A stretch of DNA of 64,000 nucleotides, taken from positions 8,092 to 72,091 of the forward strand of contig CALWKB010000017.1 in NCBI GenBank assembly GCA_944381125.1. The letters run 5' to 3'. Positions 1 to 43,328 of this stretch are shown piece by piece. Within the stretch, counting starts at the first letter, position 1. The number at the start of each line of letters is the position of its first letter. A program made the translations under genes and the position numbers. The notes under the pieces were generated by a model that did no database searches, had not been told where the DNA came from, and saw only the letters and a list, made by a program, of their open reading frames with translations. The stretch comes from an uncultured Mediterraneibacter sp. (lineage in GTDB: Bacteria > Bacillota > Clostridia > Lachnospirales > Lachnospiraceae).

Positions 1-696
1 CTGAAGCTGGTGGCGGACAGCCCCGACTGTCCGAAGTCTTCCTGCCCTTCTCCGGAAGAATACATGTCCCTTTACAGATGCGGCGCGGAACGGGTTTATG
101 TTGTAACCCTTTCGTCTGAGCTGAGCGGCTCCTATAACAGCGCTGAAGTGGGAAGGAAGCTTTTCGCGGAAGAGGACAGTGAAAAGAAAATTTATGTTTT
201 TAATTCCAGATCCGCTTCGGTGGGCGAGACGCTTATCGCGCTGAAGATCAGAGAGTGCGAGGAGCAGGGGATGGATTTTGAACAGGTGACGTCGCATGTC
301 GAGTCATATATTGAAAGTCAGAATACGTATTTTGTACTTGAGAATCTTGATACGCTGAGAAAAAACGGACGGCTGACAGGCATTCGGTCGCTTGTCGCAA
401 GCGCGCTGAATATCAAGCCGGTGATGGGCTCTACACCGAAAGGGACGATCTGTCAGCTCGGTCAGGCGCGCGGGATGAAGCGCGCGCTGGACAAAATGGC
501 GGACTATATTGCGCAGAACGCCGAGATGCCGGAGAAAAAGATTCTCGCTATCGCCCACTGCAACTGCCCGGAGAGGGCGGAAGAAGTAAGGCGGCTCCTG
601 CTTGACAAGATAAACGTCAGGTCAAGTTTTGTTGTAAATACAGCGGGAATCAGCACAATGTATGCGAATGACGGCGGAATTATTGTTGTACTGTGA
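1..696 (+). CDS. DegV family fatty-acid-binding protein (5'-partial)
   Basis: Frame open from base 1; motifs TLSSELSGSYNSA, FNSRSASVGE, L.KNGR, IKPVM and IAHCN are typical of DegV. Confidence 0.9.
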   Translation: MKLVADSPDCPKSSCPSPEEYMSLYRCGAERVYVVTLSSELSGSYNSAEVGRKLFAEEDSEKKIYVFNSRSASVGETLIALKIRECEEQGMDFEQVTSHVESYIESQNTYFVLENLDTLRKNGRLTGIRSLVASALNIKPVMGSTPKGTICQLGQARGMKRALDKMADYIAQNAEMPEKKILAIAHCNCPERAEEVRRLLLDKINVRSSFVVNTAGISTMYANDGGIIVVL

Positions 697-1029: not shown

Positions 1030-1074
1030 AAGATATGGGGTACAGGGATTTCCTTGTACCCCATATCTTTGTTT
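1030..1074 (+). terminator. Intrinsic terminator
   Basis: 18-bp stem aagatatggggtacaggg / ccttgtaccccatatctt (one G-U), loop attt, followed by tgttt. Confidence 0.8.
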
Positions 1075-1132
1075 ATGCCCGAAAACGGCATATTTTCGCG
1101 CTTTTTCGTGAATGAAAAAGATAAAAAAGGGG

Positions 1133-26207: not shown

Positions 26208-26359
26208 AAGAACTCCTCCTTTGTAGACAAAATGTAGGCTGAATCCTATTATAGCACTTCTTTTTCATTTTGTCTTGCTTCTGTTTCGCATTCTGCTAAA
26301 ATGATTATGACGGCAGTCAGAACTACGAAAAAGTGAAAGACAGCAATATGGAGGAGAAT

Positions 26360-27310
26360 ATGACAGGTTTGGAATATGGCGCGCAGCGTGTAATTGAAGA
26401 AGTGGAAAAAGCGGTTGTCGGGAAGAAAGATGTTCTGACAAAAATAATGACGGCAATTCTGGCCGGCGGGCATATCCTGATCGAAGATATACCGGGAACC
26501 GGAAAGACGACAATGGCTCTTGCCTTTTCGAAGGCAATGGGACTGAAAGCGCGGAGAGTGCAGTTTACGCCGGATGTCCTGCCGGCGGATCTGACCGGTT
26601 TTAATATTTATCAGAAAGAAACAGGCAAATTTGTCTATCAGCCGGGAGCGGTTATGTGTAATCTTCTGCTGGCTGATGAGATTAACCGTACGTCTCCGAA
26701 AACTCAGTCGGCTCTTCTGGAAGTAATGGAGGAGCAGCAGGTCACGGTAGACGGCGTGACCCGGAAGACAGGGCGGCCTTTCATAGTAATCGCCACAGAA
26801 AACCCAGCGGGTTCCGCGGGGACCCAGCTTCTGCCTGAATCTCAGCTGGACCGCTTTATGATATGTGTAAGTATGGGATATCCTACGGTAGAAGAAGAGA
26901 TGGAGATTATGAACAGGAGCCGTGAAGAGGACCGTACGTCCGGAATCCGTCCGATTCTTGGCGCGCCGACGCTGCTGGAGATGATGGAGGAGGCGCGCGG
27001 AATATACATGCACGAGAGAATCAGCCGTTATATTGCAGAGCTGGCAAAAGCCACAAGGGAAGATTCTTTTACAGAGCTGGGTATAAGTCCCAGAGGCACG
27101 GTGGCTCTGACGGCGATGGCAAAAGCATGCGCGTATTTAAAAGGGCGGGAGTATGTAATTCCTTCGGACGTGGAAGAAGTATTTCCCTGCGTGGCTTCAC
27201 ACAGAATTATTCTGAATATGAAGGCAAAAGTCGGCCGCGTAAAGGTGGAAGAAATTGTCCGGCAGATTCTCGAAAGAGTGGAAAAGCCGGCGCTGAGGAC
27301 AAGGCGGTAG
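26360..27310 (+). CDS. MoxR-family AAA+ ATPase
   Basis: HILIEDIPGTGKT, QFTPDVLPAD, ADEINRTSPKTQSALLE, ESQLDRF, SPRG. Confidence 0.95.
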   Translation: MTGLEYGAQRVIEEVEKAVVGKKDVLTKIMTAILAGGHILIEDIPGTGKTTMALAFSKAMGLKARRVQFTPDVLPADLTGFNIYQKETGKFVYQPGAVMCNLLLADEINRTSPKTQSALLEVMEEQQVTVDGVTRKTGRPFIVIATENPAGSAGTQLLPESQLDRFMICVSMGYPTVEEEMEIMNRSREEDRTSGIRPILGAPTLLEMMEEARGIYMHERISRYIAELAKATREDSFTELGISPRGTVALTAMAKACAYLKGREYVIPSDVEEVFPCVASHRIILNMKAKVGRVKVEEIVRQILERVEKPALRTRR

Positions 27311-27314
27311 AAAA

Positions 27315-28370
27315 ATGATCAGAAGAACGGCAGGGTATCTGGCAGTGCTTCTTTTCACTGCCTATCTGTTTTTTATGTATGACGCGGAGGCTCTTTCGGG
27401 AATGCTGGCGCTTTGCTGCCTGTATCCGGTTTTTTCCGCGGCCTGGCTTCTTTTTGCCGGGAAAAAGGCGGTTCCGGATCTTTACAGAGTGCCTTCTGTG
27501 GGAGAGGCGGGAAAACAGGTAAAAGCAGGAATATCGGTAAAAAATATGTCGGCGCATAATTGCCTGCGATATGAGGCCGTTTTGTCCGTAGGGGGCAGGC
27601 GCGGGAAAAAACGCGCGAAAAGGCGGCTTGGCGGCGCGCTGGAGCCCGGAGGGACAGAAACAGTATGGTGCGTGTTTGAAGCGCGCTATTGCGGAATTAC
27701 GGAAATATGCCTGGAAAGTATAAAGGTATACGATTTTCTTGGAATTTTTTACAGAAAAGTAAAATGGAACAAAAAGGCGCAGGTGAAGATTATGCCGGAA
27801 TTCCGGCTTATGCCCCTGGAAATTACAAGGAAAACAAGAGAATTTCAGGCGGAGGCCCAGGAGTTTTCCGGACAGCGCAGAGGCGATGACCCCTCTGAGA
27901 TCTATCAGGTCAGAGAATATAAAGAAAAGGATTCTCTGAAAGATATTCACTGGAAATTAAGCGCGAGAGAAGAAAAACTGATGGTAAAGGAACGCAGTTT
28001 TCCACTGGGCTGCGTTGTGCTTATCTATATTGATTACCGAAAGGAAAATGAGTCGGAATCCGGTTTTTCGCATATGCTCGAGACGGTTGCATCGCTCTCC
28101 GTTACGCTGGCGGAGGAAAAATGTATTCACATGGCCGCATGGTATGAGGAAAAGAATGAAAGAATTATCAGATGGAGGATTTCCGACGCGGAAAGCGCCT
28201 GCGAGATGATCTGGGGACTTATGGAAGCGGAACCATGCCGGGACGCGGAAAAATCGGAGGCCTGTTACAAAGACGCGTTCCGGGGTGTGGAATTCAGCAG
28301 CATTATAACGGTTGACGGAAACGGGGATATGAAAAAGGACGGAGAATCCTTTGATTTTCTCCGTGTGTAA
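27315..28370 (+). CDS. DUF58 domain protein
   Basis: N-terminal TM helices; VREY...DSLKDIHWKLSAR..LMVKE signature. Confidence 0.88.
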   Translation: MIRRTAGYLAVLLFTAYLFFMYDAEALSGMLALCCLYPVFSAAWLLFAGKKAVPDLYRVPSVGEAGKQVKAGISVKNMSAHNCLRYEAVLSVGGRRGKKRAKRRLGGALEPGGTETVWCVFEARYCGITEICLESIKVYDFLGIFYRKVKWNKKAQVKIMPEFRLMPLEITRKTREFQAEAQEFSGQRRGDDPSEIYQVREYKEKDSLKDIHWKLSAREEKLMVKERSFPLGCVVLIYIDYRKENESESGFSHMLETVASLSVTLAEEKCIHMAAWYEEKNERIIRWRISDAESACEMIWGLMEAEPCRDAEKSEACYKDAFRGVEFSSIITVDGNGDMKKDGESFDFLRV

Positions 28371-28404
28371 CCCGGATCCGGACAGGAAGAGGGAGAAGCG
28401 AAAA

Positions 28405-30453
28405 ATGAGAAACAAAAGTTCGGGAATAAAGATATACCGGACAGCAGCGGGAAAAAGACAGAAAAATCAGGGGACATTTTCGCTGTTCTGCGTGCAGGCG
28501 GCGGCGACGTGTCTGGTGATGATTTTATGGTGGAATGCCTTTCTGTCTGTATTTCCCGTTCCGTTTCACCGCGGATGGATGTACGCAGGCACATGTCTCT
28601 GGATTGTGATTTCAGGCCTTGCGGGAAGACGGTTCGGATGGAAGGCGGCGTGCGCCGCCCTGGCCGCTGCAGGGCTGTTTTTGTGGTTTTACAGGGAGCC
28701 GCTGTCCGGACTGTATGAGTGGATTTTACAGATGGTACAGAGTATGTCTGTGGAGTCGGCCGGGCAGCAGCCGTTTGAAGACGCATACAGCGGCGTGGCT
28801 GTACTGTGTACGGTTCCTGTTATCGAGCTGCTCATGGCCGTACAGAGACGGGGCCGGGGAAAAGTCTGGGCCGCTCTTATACTCGCGGCGCCCTTTTTTG
28901 CGGCGGCCGCCGCAGGACTGTTTCAGTCCCCGCTGCCCGCATGGCTTCTGATTGCGGGAGAAGGGGTTTACTTCGCGTCTGCCGGGCTGGGCGGAGCGGG
29001 AACAAAGGGCGGAAAAAAGTTTTTCGCCTGGAAACACGCGGCGGCTTCCATACTGATTACGGCAGCGGCGGCTTTTCTTTTTTTTCAGGCAGGAAAGATT
29101 CTGGATGTGCAAAGAGATGAGGAAAACGGCTTTTATATGCAGACCAGGAGCGCGATCCGCACGGAAGTGATCGGGAGAGTACAGGATCTGCTGGATCAAA
29201 GATCTGAAGAAAACCCGGAAGAAAATATGGAAGAAGCTTTCCCTGAGGAAGACGGCTATATTCCGGAACAGGAAACAGCAGAGGATGACATTTCAGAAGA
29301 CAGTCCGGATACTGATTTTTCAGGCCGGATGGGAGAAAGCGGAATGGATGATCTTGGTAGTCTGGCATATTTCCGTCCGCGGCAGGGGCAGGTGTCTTAT
29401 ATAGAGGTGGATGAAAAACCTGAGAAAACCGTATATGTGCCGCTGAGATGGGGAGTCAGTTATTCAGATAATTCATGGACAAAAGAAGATGTGACTTTTT
29501 CAACTCTTGCCCCGTCGGAGGAATACAGAAAATACCCGGATGAACTTGAAAACATGCTGGAAACGCTCTGCGGGGACTGGAAAAACGCGTCGTTTTCTGA
29601 GGTCAGCAGGGGAATCAGCAGTGAGCTTTCCGAAAGGGCGGTTTACGATACAGAACCGGGAGCGACGCCGGAAGGCAGGGATTTTGTAGAATATTTCCTG
29701 ATGGAAAACCATAAAGGGTTTTGTGTTCATTTTGCCACGGCGGCTGTACTGATGTACCGATATTGCGGATATACTGCCAGATATGCGGAAGGATACGCCG
29801 TTCCGGCGGCTTCTTTCCGGGAAAATGATTCCGGCGGCTATGAAGCGCAGATTACAGCTGAAATGGGACATGCGTGGTGCCAGGTATACGACGGGCAGAC
29901 GGAAGAGTGGACGGATATGGAGCATACGCCTCCGGCGCCTGAAGGGGCGGACATACAGCCGCCGGCATCGGATTCGGTCAGAGAGGGGACGGCTGCGGAG
30001 AAAGCAGGAGCAATGCCTGTCTGGCTTCGCAGGCTGAAAGTATGGAGCGCGGCTGCGGCGGGAATTATCGCTTCCGGCGCGATCCTCTTTTTCGGGCAGG
30101 CGGCGGTCCGGACGGCGCGAAGACGAAGAAAATTTTTCGGAAAAGACAGAGGACGGGCGATCTGTGAAATGTACGCGGGAATCATAAAAACAGCTCAATT
30201 TCAGGGTGTGGAAATAAAAGATCCGCTTCTGGAAGACGCGCCTGCCCGGCTGGAAGCCGTATATCCGGAACTGTCCCGGGAAGAATGGGAATGGATGTAT
30301 CGGTGCGTAATGGAAAATATGTTTTATCATCCCCGGCGCGGAAAAGAAAGCCGGGAAAAAATGAGAAGCCTGTATATCAGGTTCAGGAAAGCGGCATACA
30401 GCCGCATGAAGCCTGCGGAAAAATGGCGGTTCAGATATATTCTCTGCCTGTGA
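28405..30453 (+). CDS. Membrane transglutaminase-like domain protein
   Basis: Multi-TM N-terminus; GFCVHFATA (catalytic Cys), ARYAEGY, HAW; the third triad residue appears to be Glu (MEHTP). Confidence 0.88.
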   Translation: MRNKSSGIKIYRTAAGKRQKNQGTFSLFCVQAAATCLVMILWWNAFLSVFPVPFHRGWMYAGTCLWIVISGLAGRRFGWKAACAALAAAGLFLWFYREPLSGLYEWILQMVQSMSVESAGQQPFEDAYSGVAVLCTVPVIELLMAVQRRGRGKVWAALILAAPFFAAAAAGLFQSPLPAWLLIAGEGVYFASAGLGGAGTKGGKKFFAWKHAAASILITAAAAFLFFQAGKILDVQRDEENGFYMQTRSAIRTEVIGRVQDLLDQRSEENPEENMEEAFPEEDGYIPEQETAEDDISEDSPDTDFSGRMGESGMDDLGSLAYFRPRQGQVSYIEVDEKPEKTVYVPLRWGVSYSDNSWTKEDVTFSTLAPSEEYRKYPDELENMLETLCGDWKNASFSEVSRGISSELSERAVYDTEPGATPEGRDFVEYFLMENHKGFCVHFATAAVLMYRYCGYTARYAEGYAVPAASFRENDSGGYEAQITAEMGHAWCQVYDGQTEEWTDMEHTPPAPEGADIQPPASDSVREGTAAEKAGAMPVWLRRLKVWSAAAAGIIASGAILFFGQAAVRTARRRRKFFGKDRGRAICEMYAGIIKTAQFQGVEIKDPLLEDAPARLEAVYPELSREEWEWMYRCVMENMFYHPRRGKESREKMRSLYIRFRKAAYSRMKPAEKWRFRYILCL

Positions 30454-30492
30454 TGCGTGTGGCGGAAAAATAAACAGAAAGAGGATCAGATC

Positions 30493-30933
30493 ATGATACG
30501 AAGACTGGAAGAAAAAGACAGAAAACTGTATATAGAAATGGCGGGAGAGTTTTATCATTCGGATGCGGTGCTCCATCCTGTTCCGGATATACATTTTGAA
30601 AAAACAGTTTCCGAGGCTCTGCGTTCCGGCGGAGGGGCGGAAATATTCATTCTGGAATACAACGGCGAGCCTGCCGGATATGCCCTGACAGCAAGGAGCT
30701 TTTCTCAGGAGGCCGGAGGCATGGTGACATGGATTGAGGAAATCTATGTGCGGGACGCGTACCGTTCGAAAGGGCTTGGAAGAGAATTCTTTGATTATGT
30801 GGAAAAAAACAGGGGAACTGGAACGGTGCGCATACGTCTGGAAGTGGAAGCGGATAACACAAGGGCTATGGATCTTTACAGAAAACTTGGGTTTGAAGTG
30901 CTGGATTACGTGCAGATGGTCAGAGATTTCTGA
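30493..30933 (+). CDS. GNAT family N-acetyltransferase
   Basis: WIEEIYV...YRSKGLG, N.RA..LY.KLGF. Confidence 0.9.
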   Translation: MIRRLEEKDRKLYIEMAGEFYHSDAVLHPVPDIHFEKTVSEALRSGGGAEIFILEYNGEPAGYALTARSFSQEAGGMVTWIEEIYVRDAYRSKGLGREFFDYVEKNRGTGTVRIRLEVEADNTRAMDLYRKLGFEVLDYVQMVRDF

Positions 30934-31011: not shown

Positions 31012-31041
31012 TTGCAAGAAATATATGAATAATGCTATAAT
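31012..31041 (+). promoter_or_regulatory. sigma-A promoter of the 31092-36435 operon
   Basis: TTGCAA-18nt-TATAAT with extended -10 TGc. Confidence 0.7.
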
Positions 31042-31091
31042 TCATAGTAGCGTTTTTTTGCCATTTGGGCAGAAAAAAGAATTGTGAGTAG

Positions 31092-34000
31092 GTGACTGTT
31101 TTGAAAAATAAGATCAAGCGATTTGCCAAAGGAGATTTTCATATTCCGCAGCCGGATATAATTTTTCCTGAAACCCGGATTGTGATGCGGGTCGGCGAAG
31201 GAGAAAAGTACAGAGGAAGTTTTTCGCTTCAGAATCAGGGAGAGGGGACCATACGGGGGCTTGTATATCCTTCTTCTTACCGGGTGGTCTGCGACGAGCA
31301 GGGGTTTGACGGAAACCCGGTAAATATTTACTATACATACGATGGAACGGGCCTCGTTCCGGGACATGTCGAGCACGGTAAATTTACGATTGTCTGCAAC
31401 GGAGGAGAGTACGATATCGAGTTTACCGCAATCATCGAAAAGCCTTACGTTATGACGCACTACGGGAAAATTCAGAGCCTGGAAGATTTTAAAAAGCTTT
31501 CTTTCCGTGACGCGGCCGAGGCTGTGAAACTGTTCCGGTCCCGTGATTTTTATGAAATTCTCAAATACGAAGACAAGCGGATTCAGGCGCTCTATGACAA
31601 TATGCGCAGATGGGAACTGGATCAGCATGCCCTGGAGGAATTTCTTGTAGGCTGTAAACAGAAGGAAAAAATATTTCTGACGCTGGAGGAGGAGAGCCGG
31701 GCTTTCATATCTCTTACCGAAGCGCGCAAGGAAACGTTCACAATAAAGAAAAACACATGGGGATATCTTGAAATTGACGTCCGCACGGAAGGGGATTTCC
31801 TCTATGTGGAGCATACCCGCATTACGACGGAAGAGTTTATCGGGAATTCCTACCGGCTTGAATATTTTATCACGGTCGAGAATCTCCACAAAGGCAGCAA
31901 TTTCGGAAGGATCATACTTGAAACGCCTTACGAAACGCTGACTTATGAGATTGTTGTGGAAAAGGATATCGTAAGAGGAGAGGAACGCCGCGCAAATGAC
32001 AGGGAGTTTGCCGGAATCATAAGGAATTATCTGAAATATGAGAGCGGAGCGACGGATCTTAATACATGGGTGGAAGACGCTCTGAAAAGAATTACTCATC
32101 TGGAAGAAGCGGATCCTAAAAACGAGACATATCTTCTTGTCCATGCGCACATCTGTCTGCTGAGCGGCGGACAGGAGGAGGCGAAGCAGCTTCTTGAATC
32201 CTATAATTATAATCGCTTCGCGATCGGGAAGGATGTGGAACTGAGCTCTTATTATCTTTATCTCACCACCCTTCTGAGCAACGACTCGGCCGGACAGAGA
32301 AGAGTGGCGGAAGAGTTGTCAAGATCTTTTGTGAAACATCTGGACAGCTGGAGAATTCTCTGTATGCTTGTGGAAGTGGACTCTGAGTACAAGATTTACA
32401 GCGAAAGGCTCAGAGCGCTGGAAAAACAGTTTTACGAGGACCGTTCGCACAGTATCTGGTTTTACCTGCAGGCGTTCAGATGCTTCAGAGAGAAGAGCTC
32501 TTCTCTTAAAAAACTGGGAATGTTTGAAGTCCGGGTGCTTCTGTTCGCGGTGAAGCACAGGCTTATGACGAGGGAGCTGGCTCTTTATACGGCAAATCTC
32601 GCAAGTCAGATGAAAGTCTTTGACAGACATCTGTATGACGTGCTTGTACAGTCTTACGGCATGTACAAAGAGTCCATGATCCTGACGGCAATCTGTCCCC
32701 TTCTGATAAAAGGAAACTGTGTTGAGTCTGTGTATTTTAAATGGTATCAGAAGGCGGTGGAGTCGGAACTTAAGATCGCTCAGCTGTATGAATATTATAT
32801 GGCGGCAGTAATTCCCGAGCGGTTCAACAAAGCGCTTCCGAGATCGGTATACCTGTATTTTATGCACGGAAATACGCTGAATTATCAGAAATGCGCGTTT
32901 CTGTACGCAAATCTGATTACATATGAAGACGAGACGAGTGAGATATACGCACATTACAGGGATGAGATGGAGGCGTTCGCCTGGAATCAGCTGGACCGCA
33001 GAAATGTGGACAATCAGCTCAGGATTATCTATAAACGCTTTATCTCCGAATCCCAGATGAATACGGAACGCATCAAAGCGCTTTATGACATATGCCACGC
33101 GTATCAGATTACGACAAAAGTACCGAATATGAAATATATTCATGTAATTGCGGAAGACGGAACGGTTACGCAGAAGGCGCCTTATACAGAAAACGGCGCG
33201 AGAGTCTTTCTGTATTCCAAGACAGACCGGCTTGTATGGGAGGCGCGGGACGGAAGGCATTACACAGATTCCATTCCGTATGAGAGCAGAAGGCTGTTTT
33301 ACGAACTCCGGTATATGGATATGTGCAGGAAATATCTCAGCGGAATGCGCAGAAACCGTGCGGAGGAAGAAGACGCGGAGCTTACGCTCGAGCGCGTGCG
33401 TGAAAAAGGGCTGGAAAACTTCCGTGAAGAAGAGATATTTAATCTGTGCAGCAGAACGATACGTGAAAACAATTATGAAAATGATGACTTCCTCACATAT
33501 GTCTGCTTTGATCTTTTCCTGAAGCGGCAGTACGATAAAGTAATTCTTACTTATCTGGCAAATTATTACTGCGGGGCCACTTCAGACATGAAGCTTCTCT
33601 GGAGAGAGGCGCGCGAATACGAAGTCCACACGCATAAACTGGCGGAGCGCATTCTTACGCAGATGCTTTTCTCTGAAGAACTTTTCCAGGAAGCGCAGAT
33701 TTTTGAACAGTACTATGCGGAAGGAGCATATTTCCGGCTGCAGCAGGCATATCTGGTTTATGTTTCCAGAGAGTATGTGGTTGAATCAAGGAAAATCGGG
33801 CGGAGTGTAATAGATATCATATGCCGTGAGTACGAAAAAGGCGAGGAAACGGCGGACGTCTGCAAGATCGCGGTTCTGAAATATTACGCGGATAAGGAGT
33901 ACAGCTCCCAGACTCGCAGGACTCTCAGAAAGTTCATGCAGGATCTCTGCGGCAAGCAGATATATTTCCCGTTTTTCCTGTCTTACGAAAAGGAATGGCT

Positions 34001-34394
34001 GATCGAGCTTCAGCTCTGGGATAAAACTCTTATTGAGTATAAAGGCCAGAAAGGAAGCCGCGTTATGCTTTACTATCAGCTTCAGAACGGCAGGAATGAA
34101 TCCACGGAGTATTCGACGGAAGTTCTGACGCCGATGTATGAAAATCTGTATGTGAAGAAATTTGTTCTGTTTACAGATGAAAGGCTGAAATATTATTTTA
34201 AAGAGACGATAGACGGCAATTCCTACCGGAGCGACAAAGAGACATGTACGGGGAAAGCCGAGCCGGGCGAGCCGGGACGATTCGGAAGAATTAATGATAT
34301 TCTGCTCGAAAAAGATGCGGAAAAACGCGAGAAAAAGATGAAAAACTACGCGCTGGAAGACGCATGTGCGGCGCGGATGTTTGTACAGTATTAA
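31092..34394 (+). CDS. Large cytoplasmic protein, probably DUF5717 family (Ig-like domains plus helical repeats)
   Basis: 1100-aa ORF with GTG start; no signal peptide or TM; DUF name from recall. Confidence 0.75.
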   Translation: MTVLKNKIKRFAKGDFHIPQPDIIFPETRIVMRVGEGEKYRGSFSLQNQGEGTIRGLVYPSSYRVVCDEQGFDGNPVNIYYTYDGTGLVPGHVEHGKFTIVCNGGEYDIEFTAIIEKPYVMTHYGKIQSLEDFKKLSFRDAAEAVKLFRSRDFYEILKYEDKRIQALYDNMRRWELDQHALEEFLVGCKQKEKIFLTLEEESRAFISLTEARKETFTIKKNTWGYLEIDVRTEGDFLYVEHTRITTEEFIGNSYRLEYFITVENLHKGSNFGRIILETPYETLTYEIVVEKDIVRGEERRANDREFAGIIRNYLKYESGATDLNTWVEDALKRITHLEEADPKNETYLLVHAHICLLSGGQEEAKQLLESYNYNRFAIGKDVELSSYYLYLTTLLSNDSAGQRRVAEELSRSFVKHLDSWRILCMLVEVDSEYKIYSERLRALEKQFYEDRSHSIWFYLQAFRCFREKSSSLKKLGMFEVRVLLFAVKHRLMTRELALYTANLASQMKVFDRHLYDVLVQSYGMYKESMILTAICPLLIKGNCVESVYFKWYQKAVESELKIAQLYEYYMAAVIPERFNKALPRSVYLYFMHGNTLNYQKCAFLYANLITYEDETSEIYAHYRDEMEAFAWNQLDRRNVDNQLRIIYKRFISESQMNTERIKALYDICHAYQITTKVPNMKYIHVIAEDGTVTQKAPYTENGARVFLYSKTDRLVWEARDGRHYTDSIPYESRRLFYELRYMDMCRKYLSGMRRNRAEEEDAELTLERVREKGLENFREEEIFNLCSRTIRENNYENDDFLTYVCFDLFLKRQYDKVILTYLANYYCGATSDMKLLWREAREYEVHTHKLAERILTQMLFSEELFQEAQIFEQYYAEGAYFRLQQAYLVYVSREYVVESRKIGRSVIDIICREYEKGEETADVCKIAVLKYYADKEYSSQTRRTLRKFMQDLCGKQIYFPFFLSYEKEWLIELQLWDKTLIEYKGQKGSRVMLYYQLQNGRNESTEYSTEVLTPMYENLYVKKFVLFTDERLKYYFKETIDGNSYRSDKETCTGKAEPGEPGRFGRINDILLEKDAEKREKKMKNYALEDACAARMFVQY

Positions 34395-34409
34395 GGAGGT
34401 TGTCTTCTC

Positions 34410-35693
34410 ATGGGGCAGGGCAGCATTATAGGATATGAAATAAATGAAAAGACATGCCAGATCAGTTATTATAACGATCAGCATCTTGAGCCGGATACGC
34501 TTGAAGTGGACGCCGACAATTATCAGATTCCTCTGATTATCGGAAAACTGAGAGACACCTGGGCATATGGCAAAGAGGCAAAGAGGCTTGTCTCGATAAA
34601 AGAAGGCTTTACTGTCACGCGGCTTCTGAGCAAAAGTCTGGCCGGCGACAAGATTGAATTCGGAGAGGAAACTTATGACGCGGTCTGGCTTTTATCTCAG
34701 TTTATACAGATGTCGCTTCAGCCGTTCCCGGAGATAGAAGGAATTGTATTTACCGTTCCCGCGCTGACGGAGGATCTTGCGCATATGCTCCGGGGAATAG
34801 CGGCAAGAATGAATATCAATAAACATCATGTATTCATACAGGATTATAAGGAAAGTTTCTGCAACTATCTATTTTATCAGCCGAAAGAACTGTGGCAGTA
34901 CGACGCCGCGCTGTTCTGCTGTGACAGAAACGAAATCCGCGCGTTTATGCTCCGCAGACTGAAGCCGGGGCTTGGCGGCGGCAAGACGACGTTTGTTACG
35001 GTGGACGAGGTGGCCAGCGCCCATATGAAAGAACTCGCCATGGTTTACCCTGTTCTGAACGAGGACAAGGCAAAAGAGGCGGACACGATGTTCTGCAAAT
35101 TTATTCAGAGCGTTTTTGACAAAAGGCTTGTTTCTTCCGTATTCCTGACGGGAGAAGGATTTGAAAACAACTGGTATCCGAAAGCGCTTCGCATGCTCTG
35201 CAACGGGCGCAGGGCCTTTATCGGAAACAACCTTTACAGTAAAGGAGCCTGTTACACGGCGTACCGCAGACTTTTTATGCATATCGAAAATCCGGTCTAT
35301 CTTTCGGCGGACAAGCTGACGGACCAGATCACTGTAAACATGCGGGTGGATGGACAGGAGATGTGGTATCCGATTGTTTCCTGGGGGGCGCACTGGTATG
35401 AGTCGAATAATCAGTGGGAAGTGATTCTCGAGAATACAGAAGACATTGAATTCCATATTGAGTCTCTGATTCAGGGAAATGTGAGAACGGAAAAGATTTC
35501 TCTGGAGAAATTCCCGAAACGGGCGGAATACTCCATGCGTCTGCAGCTGGAAACCATGTTTCTGGATGAAAAAACATGTAAAATCACAGTCAGAGACGAG
35601 GGGTTCGGAGACTTTTTCCCGGCTACGGATTTCCGGGAGGAGAAGATTATTCACTTAGGAGGCAATGATGGGAAGTTTAATTCTTTGTCATGA
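34410..35693 (+). CDS. Degenerate Hsp70/DnaK-fold protein, probably DUF5716 family
   Basis: RBS AGGAGG; collinear similarity to DnaK motifs (see findings); DUF name from recall. Confidence 0.75.
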   Translation: MGQGSIIGYEINEKTCQISYYNDQHLEPDTLEVDADNYQIPLIIGKLRDTWAYGKEAKRLVSIKEGFTVTRLLSKSLAGDKIEFGEETYDAVWLLSQFIQMSLQPFPEIEGIVFTVPALTEDLAHMLRGIAARMNINKHHVFIQDYKESFCNYLFYQPKELWQYDAALFCCDRNEIRAFMLRRLKPGLGGGKTTFVTVDEVASAHMKELAMVYPVLNEDKAKEADTMFCKFIQSVFDKRLVSSVFLTGEGFENNWYPKALRMLCNGRRAFIGNNLYSKGACYTAYRRLFMHIENPVYLSADKLTDQITVNMRVDGQEMWYPIVSWGAHWYESNNQWEVILENTEDIEFHIESLIQGNVRTEKISLEKFPKRAEYSMRLQLETMFLDEKTCKITVRDEGFGDFFPATDFREEKIIHLGGNDGKFNSLS

Positions 35694-36435
35694 CAGGCAT
35701 GCGGCGCATCCCTATGAGATCACCAGGATCCACTGCAGGATATATACAATAGAGGAGCTCTGCTATTATCTTTGCAACAATCTTTATCTGATCGATTACA
35801 CGATTATGAATGAACAGCTTTGTACGTGGCTGGACGATGAACTGGGCATGAACAGCCTGGCGGAGAGTCTGAGAGACGTGCTGAGGCTGCGCGGATCAGT
35901 GGAGAAATTTGTACTTACCATTTTGAAAGAATCCAGAATATACCGGGAGCCGGAGATGATACGGATCCAGAATGTTCTGGAGCATCTGAAAAACCAGAAG
36001 GATATTGAACGCCAGAAATATAAGGGAGACAACCTGCTGGAAAGCGGGGAAGTCGAGGAGGCGATTCTTGTCTATCAGGCGATTCTTAATCAGGAAAAGG
36101 ACGAAAGCGTAGACGAAAAGTTTTACGGCAAGATTTACGCCGGGCTCGGAGCGGCATACGGCAGGCTTTTCCTGTACCAGGAATCGGCCAGAATGTATGA
36201 CAGAGCTTATCAGATCTGCGCGGACGAGGCTCTTCTCAAGCCATATCTTTACGCGTCTTATAAATATCTTTCTCTGGAGGAGTATCACATCCTGATTACA
36301 AAGCGTGACGACTACATGCGGATAAACGCTGAAATGCGCAGAGAAATCGAAGATGTGAAAAAGGGAATGCAGACAGAAACGGACGAAGACCTTCTGGAAC
36401 AGTGGAAAAGACAGCACCGCAGGAGCCACGGTTGA
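35668..36435 (+). CDS. TPR-like helical protein of unknown function
   Basis: Start overlaps the upstream stop, RBS AGGAGG; TPR-like GDNLLESGEVEEAILVYQAIL and YAGLGAAYGRLFLYQESARMYDRAYQ. Confidence 0.75.
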   Translation: MGSLILCHDRHAAHPYEITRIHCRIYTIEELCYYLCNNLYLIDYTIMNEQLCTWLDDELGMNSLAESLRDVLRLRGSVEKFVLTILKESRIYREPEMIRIQNVLEHLKNQKDIERQKYKGDNLLESGEVEEAILVYQAILNQEKDESVDEKFYGKIYAGLGAAYGRLFLYQESARMYDRAYQICADEALLKPYLYASYKYLSLEEYHILITKRDDYMRINAEMRREIEDVKKGMQTETDEDLLEQWKRQHRRSHG

Positions 36436-36460
36436 CAGCCGGGAGCGGGTATGGTAGAAT
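36432..36460 (+). promoter_or_regulatory. sigma-A promoter of the amino acid ABC operon
   Basis: TTGACA-17nt-TAGAAT with extended -10 TG; short inverted repeat acggta-ctt-taccgt at 36464-36478. Confidence 0.75.
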
Positions 36461-42212: not shown

Positions 42213-43328
42213 ATGGAATGGTGCATGAAATTGTATGCAAAGAGAACTGCGGGCAGGTATATGCGGTACACAGCCGTAATTGTCCTGTCTGCTCTTATGT
42301 TCTGCCTGTTTCGCGGAGAGGCCGGCGGCCGTGACAGGCTTTCTGAGTTCAGGCCTGCAGAGGAAACAGCCGGCGGGAACAAAGCCGCATCTGAGCCGGA
42401 AGGGATACCGGATCTTTCCGGATACGGGAATGACGCCTCTTTTGCCCTGCCGGCAGAAGCACAGGAAATATGCGTGATAAACTCATGCGCATCCGCCGCC
42501 ATGGAATTCGGAAAAGATCTGTCCGTTCCTGCGGCGGAACGTCCGGAGGACAGGACGGAGAATACGCGGACGGACAGGATGGAATACGCTGAGGCGCAGG
42601 AAAGCCGGGAAAGCCTTACCGACTCCGGATTCGGTACAGCGACAACCCCGGCGGTATCTGCGGGCAGCATAACGGATGTGCCGGATTCAGCCGTCGAAGA
42701 GGAAACGGAATATACGGATGATATTATTTCCGGTCCGGAGGAACTGCCTGTCGTGCCGGAGGAGGTGCCTGCCGTGCCGGAGGAGGTGCCTGCCGGTCCG
42801 GAGGAACCGGCTCCTTCCGTTCCTGTAATGAAGGTGGCGGACGGATTTTTTGTAGACGAATCGGGCGCGGTCTGCGCAATTGCGGATCCGGAGACAGCAG
42901 TGAAGGACGGGCGGCTGATTCTGCCTTCTGACGGGTGCAGTTCAATTGCGGCCGGGGCGTTTCTCTCTGCGCCGGAAGGAATCAGGGAAGTTTATATTCC
43001 GGCCTGCATTACGGAAATTGCGGAGGGCGCTTTCGCCGGCCTTAATGAGACTGAATGGTTCAGCACAGACGGGGAAGGAAGCTACGTGGCGGTGGATGGC
43101 GTACTGTTTTCAGAAGGAGGCGCATGCCTGTTCGCGTTTCCGGCGGCAAGAATCGGAATATATAAAGTGCCGGACGAGGTTGTCCGGTTTGCGTCCGACG
43201 CGTTCGCAGGCGCTTCCATAAGCAAACTGGACGCGAGGGGATGCAGTCTCGAAGACGTGGGGAACCTGCCCGAAGAGATTGACCTGTTAAGAGCTCCGGA
43301 GGAAGAGGATGCCGGTTTTATTTATTGA
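42213..43328 (+). CDS. Membrane-anchored surface protein with BspA-like (LRR_5) repeats
   Basis: N-terminal TM, acidic Pro-rich linker, I..GAF...I.EVYIPA.IT.IAEGAF and Y.AVDGVLFS...L..FP; start uncertain. Confidence 0.65.
   Translation: MEWCMKLYAKRTAGRYMRYTAVIVLSALMFCLFRGEAGGRDRLSEFRPAEETAGGNKAASEPEGIPDLSGYGNDASFALPAEAQEICVINSCASAAMEFGKDLSVPAAERPEDRTENTRTDRMEYAEAQESRESLTDSGFGTATTPAVSAGSITDVPDSAVEEETEYTDDIISGPEELPVVPEEVPAVPEEVPAGPEEPAPSVPVMKVADGFFVDESGAVCAIADPETAVKDGRLILPSDGCSSIAAGAFLSAPEGIREVYIPACITEIAEGAFAGLNETEWFSTDGEGSYVAVDGVLFSEGGACLFAFPAARIGIYKVPDEVVRFASDAFAGASISKLDARGCSLEDVGNLPEEIDLLRAPEEEDAGFIY
42735..42806 (+). repeat. 21-bp in-frame tandem repeat (about 3.4 copies) encoding PEE(L/V)P(V/A)(V/G)
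   Basis: ccggaggaactgcctgtcgtg / ccggaggaggtgcctgccgtg / ccggaggaggtgcctgccggt / ccggaggaa. Confidence 0.9.

Follow-up and report, generated by a model that had tools for sequence, protein, structure and literature searches.

In the yeast ribosome-associated complex, the atypical Hsp70 Ssz1 is a structural subunit and pairs with the J-protein Zuotin on the ribosome. The tetratricopeptide repeat (TPR) domains of eukaryotic Hop and CHIP clamp the EEVD tail of active Hsp70. Conflict systems of the GAP1-N2/DO-GTPase type are defined by a core TRAFAC GTPase and carry an Hsp70-GrpE theme (Kaur, Burroughs, Iyer, Aravind 2020, PMC7159879). Here we describe a module of three genes, A, B and C, in a 64,000-nucleotide stretch (the window) of contig CALWKB010000017.1 from an uncultured Mediterraneibacter sp. 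(assembly GCA_944381125.1). Proteins A and B are full-length members of the Pfam families DUF5717 (PF18984 and PF18983) and DUF5716 (PF18980), respectively, and C is a TPR-like protein. The Pfam entries DUF5717 and DUF5716 consist of names only, with no function, structure or paper attached, and searches under the DUF names, the Pfam accessions or related themes found no study of these genes. New here are the descent of the trio from a multi-Hsp70 operon and a fourth, flagellum-linked gene, D.

The locus resembles each of the described systems in part. Protein B shares the fold of the nucleotide-binding domain (NBD) and of the beta part of the substrate-binding domain (SBD-beta) with canonical Hsp70s such as DnaK, HscA and HscC, and its homology with them is traceable through the B protein of an outgroup; it differs in lacking the lid, the phosphate loops, K70 and E171, and in belonging to a unit without a J-protein or exchange factor. 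It can be likened to Ssz1 as a protein of Hsp70 fold that would be a fixed partner rather than a cycling chaperone, but unlike Ssz1-Zuotin the trio contains no J domain, no link to the ribosome was seen, and the partners would be a giant immunoglobulin-like (Ig)/TPR scaffold and a TPR-like protein. Hop and CHIP likewise pair an Hsp70-type protein with a TPR protein, but B has no EEVD tail and is predicted to be inactive, and C is fused to it in seven genera. With the GAP1-N2 GTPase systems the likeness is one of themes (Hsp70, GrpE, beta-sandwich repeat proteins and TPR), but their defining GTPase was not found in the trio, its neighbours or the expanded operon introduced below, and the trio is distributed as a core gene, not patchily. 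That expanded operon, from other members of the order Lachnospirales, has the same core in the same order (DUF5717 ... DUF5716 ... TPR protein) and adds three motif-intact Hsp70s, a 644-aa GrpE-domain protein and an Hsp70-vWA fusion, all of which are missing from the window.

Protein B matches DUF5716_C (PF18980) along profile positions 2-296 of 296, with an E-value of 5e-102 (341 bits against a cut-off of 34.7). No HSP70 match (PF00012) to B was obtained at E <= 0.1, and a PF00012 scan of the whole genome recovered two canonical Hsp70s and MreB, with B not among them. The structure of B was modelled with AlphaFold2 (AF2) from an alignment of 39 diverse orthologues, giving a predicted local distance difference test score (pLDDT) of 89.2 and a predicted template modelling score (pTM) of 0.86. 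When this model was used in a Foldseek search, the top 50 PDB matches were all Hsp70s, covering NBD and SBD-beta (E 3.9e-18 to 2e-13, probability 1.0), which bears out the Hsp70 fold that the initial annotation had proposed for the middle gene. The best match, at ~10% identity and E 3.9e-18, is a DnaK lacking the alpha part of the substrate-binding domain (SBD-alpha), and the Ssz1 structures 6sr6, 7x3k and 5mb9 also rank among the top fold matches. The helical lid formed by SBD-alpha is absent from B, the chain ending ~10 residues past the last beta strand, and the best matches are lid-deleted constructs. Comparison of the B family profile with the genome's own Hsp70 by hhalign gave 82.8%, over lobe I.

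At the level of sequence, the Hsp70 motif GIDLGTTNS is replaced by GYEINEKTC in B, nothing corresponds to K70 or E171, and the phosphate-2 loop DLGGGT is missing. Columns corresponding to nucleotide motifs are variable across the 39 orthologues, and the fold-defining glycines G8, G248 and G279 are retained. Echoes of Hsp70 sequence are left in VFTVPA, ES, xGxGF, KGA and the final strands of SBD-beta. Because the phosphate loops, K70 and E171 are gone, B is not expected to cycle ATP. It is very probably an Hsp70 descendant that neither binds nor hydrolyses ATP in the Hsp70 way, as judged from the model and the alignment together. In the clade of the window B ends in a 13-residue tail, HLGGxxGxFNSxS (35655-35693), which is missing from other genera; the sequence that encodes it is the segment overlapping the start of gene C.

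A restriction of the trio to Lachnospiraceae fitted a class-wide sample, but this sample held one other genome of the order, and an order-level scan overturned it. In the order-level sample, DUF5716_C was detected in 81 of 151 genomes. Matches outside the family are weaker and lie in frames of ~520-550 aa, usually two neighbouring ones per genome. Five outgroup loci were fetched, and four of them share the same expanded operon, in the order DUF5717, Hsp70 (559 aa), GrpE-domain protein (644 aa, with the GrpE domain C-terminal), DUF5716/Hsp70 hybrid, Hsp70 (551 aa), Hsp70-vWA fusion (692 aa) and TPR protein (387 aa). Carriers are Defluviitalea phaphyphila Alg1 (L074) and its relatives, which are metagenome-assembled genomes of 'Ca. 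Epulonipiscium'; the operon or its variant is present at L073:6320-19939 (complete genome G500), L074, L075 and L076. Profile comparisons support orthology of the outgroup proteins with A (2.6e-73), B (8.4e-49) and C (5.3e-35), and the 387-aa TPR protein is orthologous to C also by hhalign (99.4%).

The outgroup B, 523 aa long, matches both PF18980 (1.5e-26) and PF00012 (1.4e-17). All three Hsp70 paralogues of the outgroup are lid-less, with canonical motifs intact. The decay of motifs is thus stepwise, from the intact outgroup paralogues through the half-degenerate outgroup B to the fully degenerate B of the window. In locus L075, from the closest outgroup, the middle gene is short, the third Hsp70 is split and C is fragmentary; gene D is present, and the locus looks like a decaying intermediate. 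No J-protein was found in the expanded operon, and no DnaJ or GrpE domain was found in A, B, C or the neighbours of the trio in the window, GrpE being present in the expanded outgroup operon only. Since the same core sits in a larger outgroup operon with intact Hsp70s, GrpE and vWA, the trio can be understood as a reduced form. On this comparative evidence the Lachnospiraceae trio is an apparent ATPase-free remnant of a larger, J-protein-less Hsp70 system of the order Lachnospirales, and the chaperone link suspected earlier for the three genes holds by descent, through the intact Hsp70s and the GrpE-domain protein in the operon of sister families.

Elsewhere in the genome of the window, dnaK-dnaJ is split over contigs C5 and C69, with DnaJ after DnaK, and a second full-length canonical Hsp70 of 585 aa, with lid and intact motifs, is located on contig C74 (C74:7443-9164, L067). 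The latter was considered as a relocated member of the operon and rejected: it has a lid, and the genes next to it encode a membrane protein and an ABC ATPase. No J-protein or GrpE gene was found near it.

In the alignment of orthologues, the N-terminal ~100 aa of protein C form a conserved domain, after which come TPR-like helices and a basic tail. It belongs to no Pfam family of its own. The TPR signal is weak in the C of the window, where TPR_12 was detected at 0.015 only, below the cut-off; the TPR-like character ascribed to the third gene was nevertheless recovered in its orthologues, 23 of 39 matching TPR_2 (best 6.6e-9), and in the outgroup orthologue, with a TPR match at 5e-26. Gene C directly follows B in 39/39 fetched loci. 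In seven genera B and C form a single in-frame open reading frame (ORF) of 690-728 aa, for instance 720 aa in L062 and 698 aa in L064; the fused C sits right after SBD-beta, in the position at which the lid would be. Descent of C from a detached Hsp70 lid was considered and rejected (hhalign probability 0.25%). These natural in-frame fusions are the strongest evidence for pairing; they argue that B and C are a physical pair and support the B-C part of the complex foreseen in the initial annotation.

Protein A matches DUF5717_N (PF18984) at 5.8e-211 (703 bits) and the C-terminal DUF5717 family (PF18983) at 2.3e-101 (339 bits), with a cut-off of 25; together with the match of B, this confirms the assignment to DUF5717/DUF5716 given in the initial annotation. 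Its AF2 model has a pLDDT of 85.7 and a pTM of 0.48, the latter as expected for a multi-domain protein. In Foldseek searches the N-terminal part of the model retrieved ASH/PapD-like Ig modules (hydin-like chains of the ciliary central apparatus, the SPD-2 domain of CEP192, and 2qsv), and the helical parts retrieved TPR/HAT scaffolds such as Ski3, Naa15 and IFT-A. No enzyme was matched by the A model in Foldseek. Invariant residues in the orthologue alignment are almost all aromatic, and conserved polar catalytic residues are absent. Protein A is therefore predicted to be a non-catalytic scaffold of Ig-like (ASH-type) beta-sandwiches and TPR-like solenoids, in line with the Ig/helical scaffold envisaged at the outset.

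The PF18984 match of A ends at profile position 769 of 875, because the clade of the window lacks ~90 aa there. In this clade A is ~1100 aa long vs ~1190 aa, the missing segment mapping around residue 745-760, between the third beta domain and the second helical region. None of the 15 clade members on the tree has gene D, though six of them are flagellated. The segment missing from A might be the one that works with D.

Gene D encodes a protein of ~395 aa and begins 3-30 nt after C in many relatives (e.g. L041:12641-13825 and L040:12478-13698). It is composed of an N-terminal coiled coil, a hairpin of two transmembrane (TM) helices and a helical C-terminal domain, with the coiled coils predicted to be cytoplasmic. 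Profile searches assigned D to no Pfam family and gave no PDB match. The family was surveyed with one genome from each of 151 Lachnospiraceae genera, and D was found in 67 of these genomes, always beside C; it is absent from the genome and the clade of the window. The genome of the window is also without flagella. The same 151 genomes were scanned for flagellin and FlhA, in line with the profiling against motility that the initial annotation had recommended. All 67 carriers of D have both FlhA and flagellin, and D is present in 67 FlhA-positive genomes and in 0 of 71 FlhA-negative ones (Fisher p 6e-30); 13 flagellated genomes are without D. A tree of B and C from 144 genomes implies 19 or more changes of state in D. 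Eleven phylogenetically independent contrasts were available on supported branches, and FlhA follows D in ~10 of them and never changes in the opposite direction (sign test p ~0.002). Genes A, B and C do not follow the flagellar pattern and are kept in aflagellate genomes, including that of the window. In G321 (G321:C47:6237-16530), from a genus with fused B and C, D and a flagellin gene ~3 kb downstream of it share a contig; in no other genome was a flagellar gene noticed close to the module.

In the family survey 148 of the 151 genera carry A, 148 carry B and 146 carry C. Each is a single-copy gene, and the three are neighbours wherever the assembly permits; the unit proposed in the initial annotation is thus real and conserved. 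Flanking genes vary between genomes and are housekeeping genes (purA/B/C/F, gltX, pcrA, valS, an aminotransferase). No genes of mobile elements were found near the trio, and its sequence composition is native to the genome. In comparison with a species of the same genus, nonsynonymous divergence (dN) is 0.064 for B, 0.114 for C and 0.150 for the C-terminal part of A; the ratio to synonymous divergence could not be computed, as synonymous sites are saturated even within the genus. By these comparisons the module is a set of core genes apparently under purifying selection, unlike a defence island. Profile alignments can overrun true start and stop codons, and internal stops in some matches of D and C were not counted as decay. 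Two ~98%-complete genomes, G371 and G424, lack A, B, C and D. The first of them is flagellated, with FlhA and four flagellins, which means that flagella can be built without the module.

Positions of the features in the window, together with the predicted layout of proteins A and B, are collected in Table 1. Genes A, B and C most likely form one operon and, from the arrangement of their ends, appear to be translationally coupled. The distance between A and B is 15 nt, and B and C overlap by 29 nt if counted from ATG 35665 or by 26 nt from ATG 35668. The tight coupling claimed earlier is thus correct as to the gap and the existence of an overlap, but the latter is longer than the 4-nt ATGA stop/start type. 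Alignment of orthologues favours the in-frame TTG 31101 as the start of A, situated 6 nt after AGGTG and giving MKNKIK as in the orthologues, and the second ATG, 35668, as the start of C, yielding MGSLILC, which is common to 38 orthologues. A 160-nt gap, which holds the upstream promoter-like site, separates gene A from the end of a GNAT gene (30933). The unit had also been delimited as running from its own promoter to the next one. Sites are indeed present at both ends, and they are the top two of 19 promoter-like sites in a 10-kb scan, although all of them are consensus matches only and shuffled sequence yields 12.7 sites against the 19 observed. No terminator was found on the + strand 3' of C.

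Table 1. Features of the three-gene module, with nucleotide positions given for the window and residue ranges for the proteins.
Feature	Position	Strand	Description
Promoter-like site before A	31012-31041	+	TTGCAA, 18 nt, TATAAT; TG-extended; 10/12 consensus matches
Gene A (DUF5717)	31092-34394	+	1100 aa with GTG 31092 as start; 1097 aa with TTG 31101, the likelier start
Shine-Dalgarno sequence for B	34393-34399	+	AAGGAGG; overlaps the stop codon of A; 10 nt before ATG 34410
Gene B (DUF5716)	34410-35693	+	427 aa; Hsp70 fold, lid-less
Shine-Dalgarno sequence for C	35657-35662	+	AGGAGG; inside the 3' end of B; ATGs 35665/35668 next
Gene C (TPR-like)	35665-36435	+	256 aa, or 255 aa from the likelier ATG 35668
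Promoter-like site of the amino-acid ABC transporter unit	36432-36460	+	11/12 consensus matches; TG-extended; 3' boundary, outside the module
Protein A, N half	residues 25-127; 130-187; 196-291; 296-668		Predicted beta-sandwich; helices; beta-sandwich; alpha-solenoid
Protein A, C half	residues 670-734; 739-972; 979-1053; 1063-1099		Predicted beta domain; helical repeats; beta domain; terminal helices
Protein B, NBD-like domain	residues 1-~300		AF2 model
Protein B, SBD-beta-like domain	residues ~300-415		AF2 model

None of the three proteins contains a 19-residue window above 1.6 on the Kyte-Doolittle scale (maxima 1.45, 1.05 and 0.67 for A, B and C), consistent with the earlier statement that the trio has no TM helix. 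An NCBIfam scan of A, B and C gave no match, and PDB sequence searches with them gave nothing meaningful. Genes located 3' of the trio in the window encode SBP_bac_3, BPD_transp_1 and ABC_tran proteins. Directly upstream are genes of a MoxR-type AAA_3 ATPase, a DUF58 protein and a 700-aa transglutaminase-core protein (26333-30453), which make up a classic set, followed by a GNAT acetyltransferase (30457-30933). The MoxR(AAA_3)-DUF58-transglutaminase set was considered as a part of the system and rejected, as these genes are not conserved neighbours of the trio in 20 other genomes. Further downstream, the ORF 42213-43328 encodes a protein of 371 aa with no Pfam match. Its N-terminal segment is hydrophobic, its linker is long, acidic and rich in Pro and Glu, and its C-terminal region resembles BspA-type leucine-rich repeats. 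This ORF was examined as a displaced D and rejected, for it shows no similarity to D.

Taking these observations together, we favour, as somewhat the better bet, a reading in which A, B and C form a stable, non-enzymatic cytoplasmic complex that acts as a scaffold or adaptor independently of ATP. In such a complex A, with its Ig-like beta-sandwiches and TPR-like solenoids, would serve as the platform, B would be a fixed docking or clamp subunit and not a motor, and C would act as a TPR adaptor in direct contact with B at the place where a lid would follow. The larger operon would have lost its ATP-driven parts, and the silent core would have been retained under purifying selection. The D protein of flagellated relatives would anchor the complex to the membrane, with a role that depends on the flagellum. 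We infer the inclusion of A in the complex, the static clamp or adaptor role of B and the membrane tethering by D. Several points weigh against this reading. ASKHA-fold proteins can bind nucleotide through unusual loops, and B may have kept residual nucleotide binding, with G248 invariant, D10 present in 32/39 and G250 in 34/39 orthologues. The association of A with B and C appears in synteny and in no other evidence. The absence of the genes from G371 and G424 shows that the module is not strictly indispensable. A broader proposal, which we put forward tentatively and regard as rather doubtful, is that the DUF5717/DUF5716/TPR core represents a fourth prokaryotic Hsp70 system beside DnaK, HscA and HscC, J-protein-independent, scaffold-organised and confined to Lachnospirales. 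Lachnospiraceae would then keep its dead core as an ATP-independent, cell-organising scaffold, coupled through D to flagella in motile species.

The trio might instead be a co-chaperone or adaptor that needs an active Hsp70 in trans, either DnaK or the second Hsp70, with B pairing with or regulating the live protein in the manner of Ssz1. Sister families always encode the core with motif-intact Hsp70s and a GrpE-domain factor, two canonical Hsp70 genes are present in the genome of the window (one on C74, and that of DnaK on C5 and C69), and the top fold matches of B include Ssz1 structures. We nevertheless think this unlikely, as the trio has no J domain, GrpE or EEVD-type tail, the second Hsp70 has no linked partner genes, and no tie was found between DnaK and the trio. 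More improbable is a role as an assembly factor for flagella or motility, with A, B and C of non-motile species being leftover or repurposed. Such a role would account for the occurrence of D only with FlhA and flagellin (67/67 vs 0/71), for ~10 independent joint gains or losses, and for the flagellin gene 3 kb downstream of D in G321. It is difficult to reconcile with A, B and C that are intact and apparently under purifying selection in aflagellate genomes such as that of the window, with trio carriers among the 71 FlhA-negative genomes, and with the 13 flagellated genomes without D, of which G371 is without the entire module; moreover, no flagellar gene is a conserved neighbour.

That the three genes are mere neighbours with unrelated functions, forming no complex, is suggested by the link of A to B and C, for which gene order is the sole evidence. 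We consider it very improbable, because ~148 genera and the expanded outgroup operon have the order A-B-C despite varying flanks, the genes appear translationally coupled, B and C are fused in seven genera, and all three were lost together in G371 and G424. Hardly any probability, and slightly less than this, is left for an anti-phage or conflict system, in which the trio would be a sensor-scaffold with a chaperone-like switch. Themes are shared with the systems of Kaur et al. 2020 (PMC7159879), namely Hsp70-like proteins, Ig/fibronectin type III-like repeats, TPR and, in the expanded form, vWA. The conflict or stress-sensor alternative offered in the initial annotation is disfavoured by single-copy genes in ~98% of genera, a fixed housekeeping neighbourhood (pur genes, gltX, pcrA, valS) and native composition. 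No PADLOC match (E <= 0.1) and no PHROGs match was obtained for A, B and C, and no GTPase, effector domain or mobile-element genes were found nearby. Compared with all of these, the ATP-independent scaffold or adaptor remains our preferred reading, and the module, on which no publication was found, is best classed as a reduced variant of a system derived from Hsp70.

Few bacteria of the human colon are more abundant than Lachnospiraceae, and ~5.3 kb of coding sequence is retained by ~98% of the genera of this family in this module. Its origin is now traced to an operon with multiple Hsp70s, GrpE and vWA and without a J-protein, every ATP-using part of which appears to have been lost. For the chaperone field this offers a natural experiment, in which seemingly dead subunits of an Hsp70 machine outlast the live ones. 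Gene D, being confined to genomes that carry FlhA, gives a handle on function, and for gut microbiology the trio is a family-wide marker module amenable to knockout.

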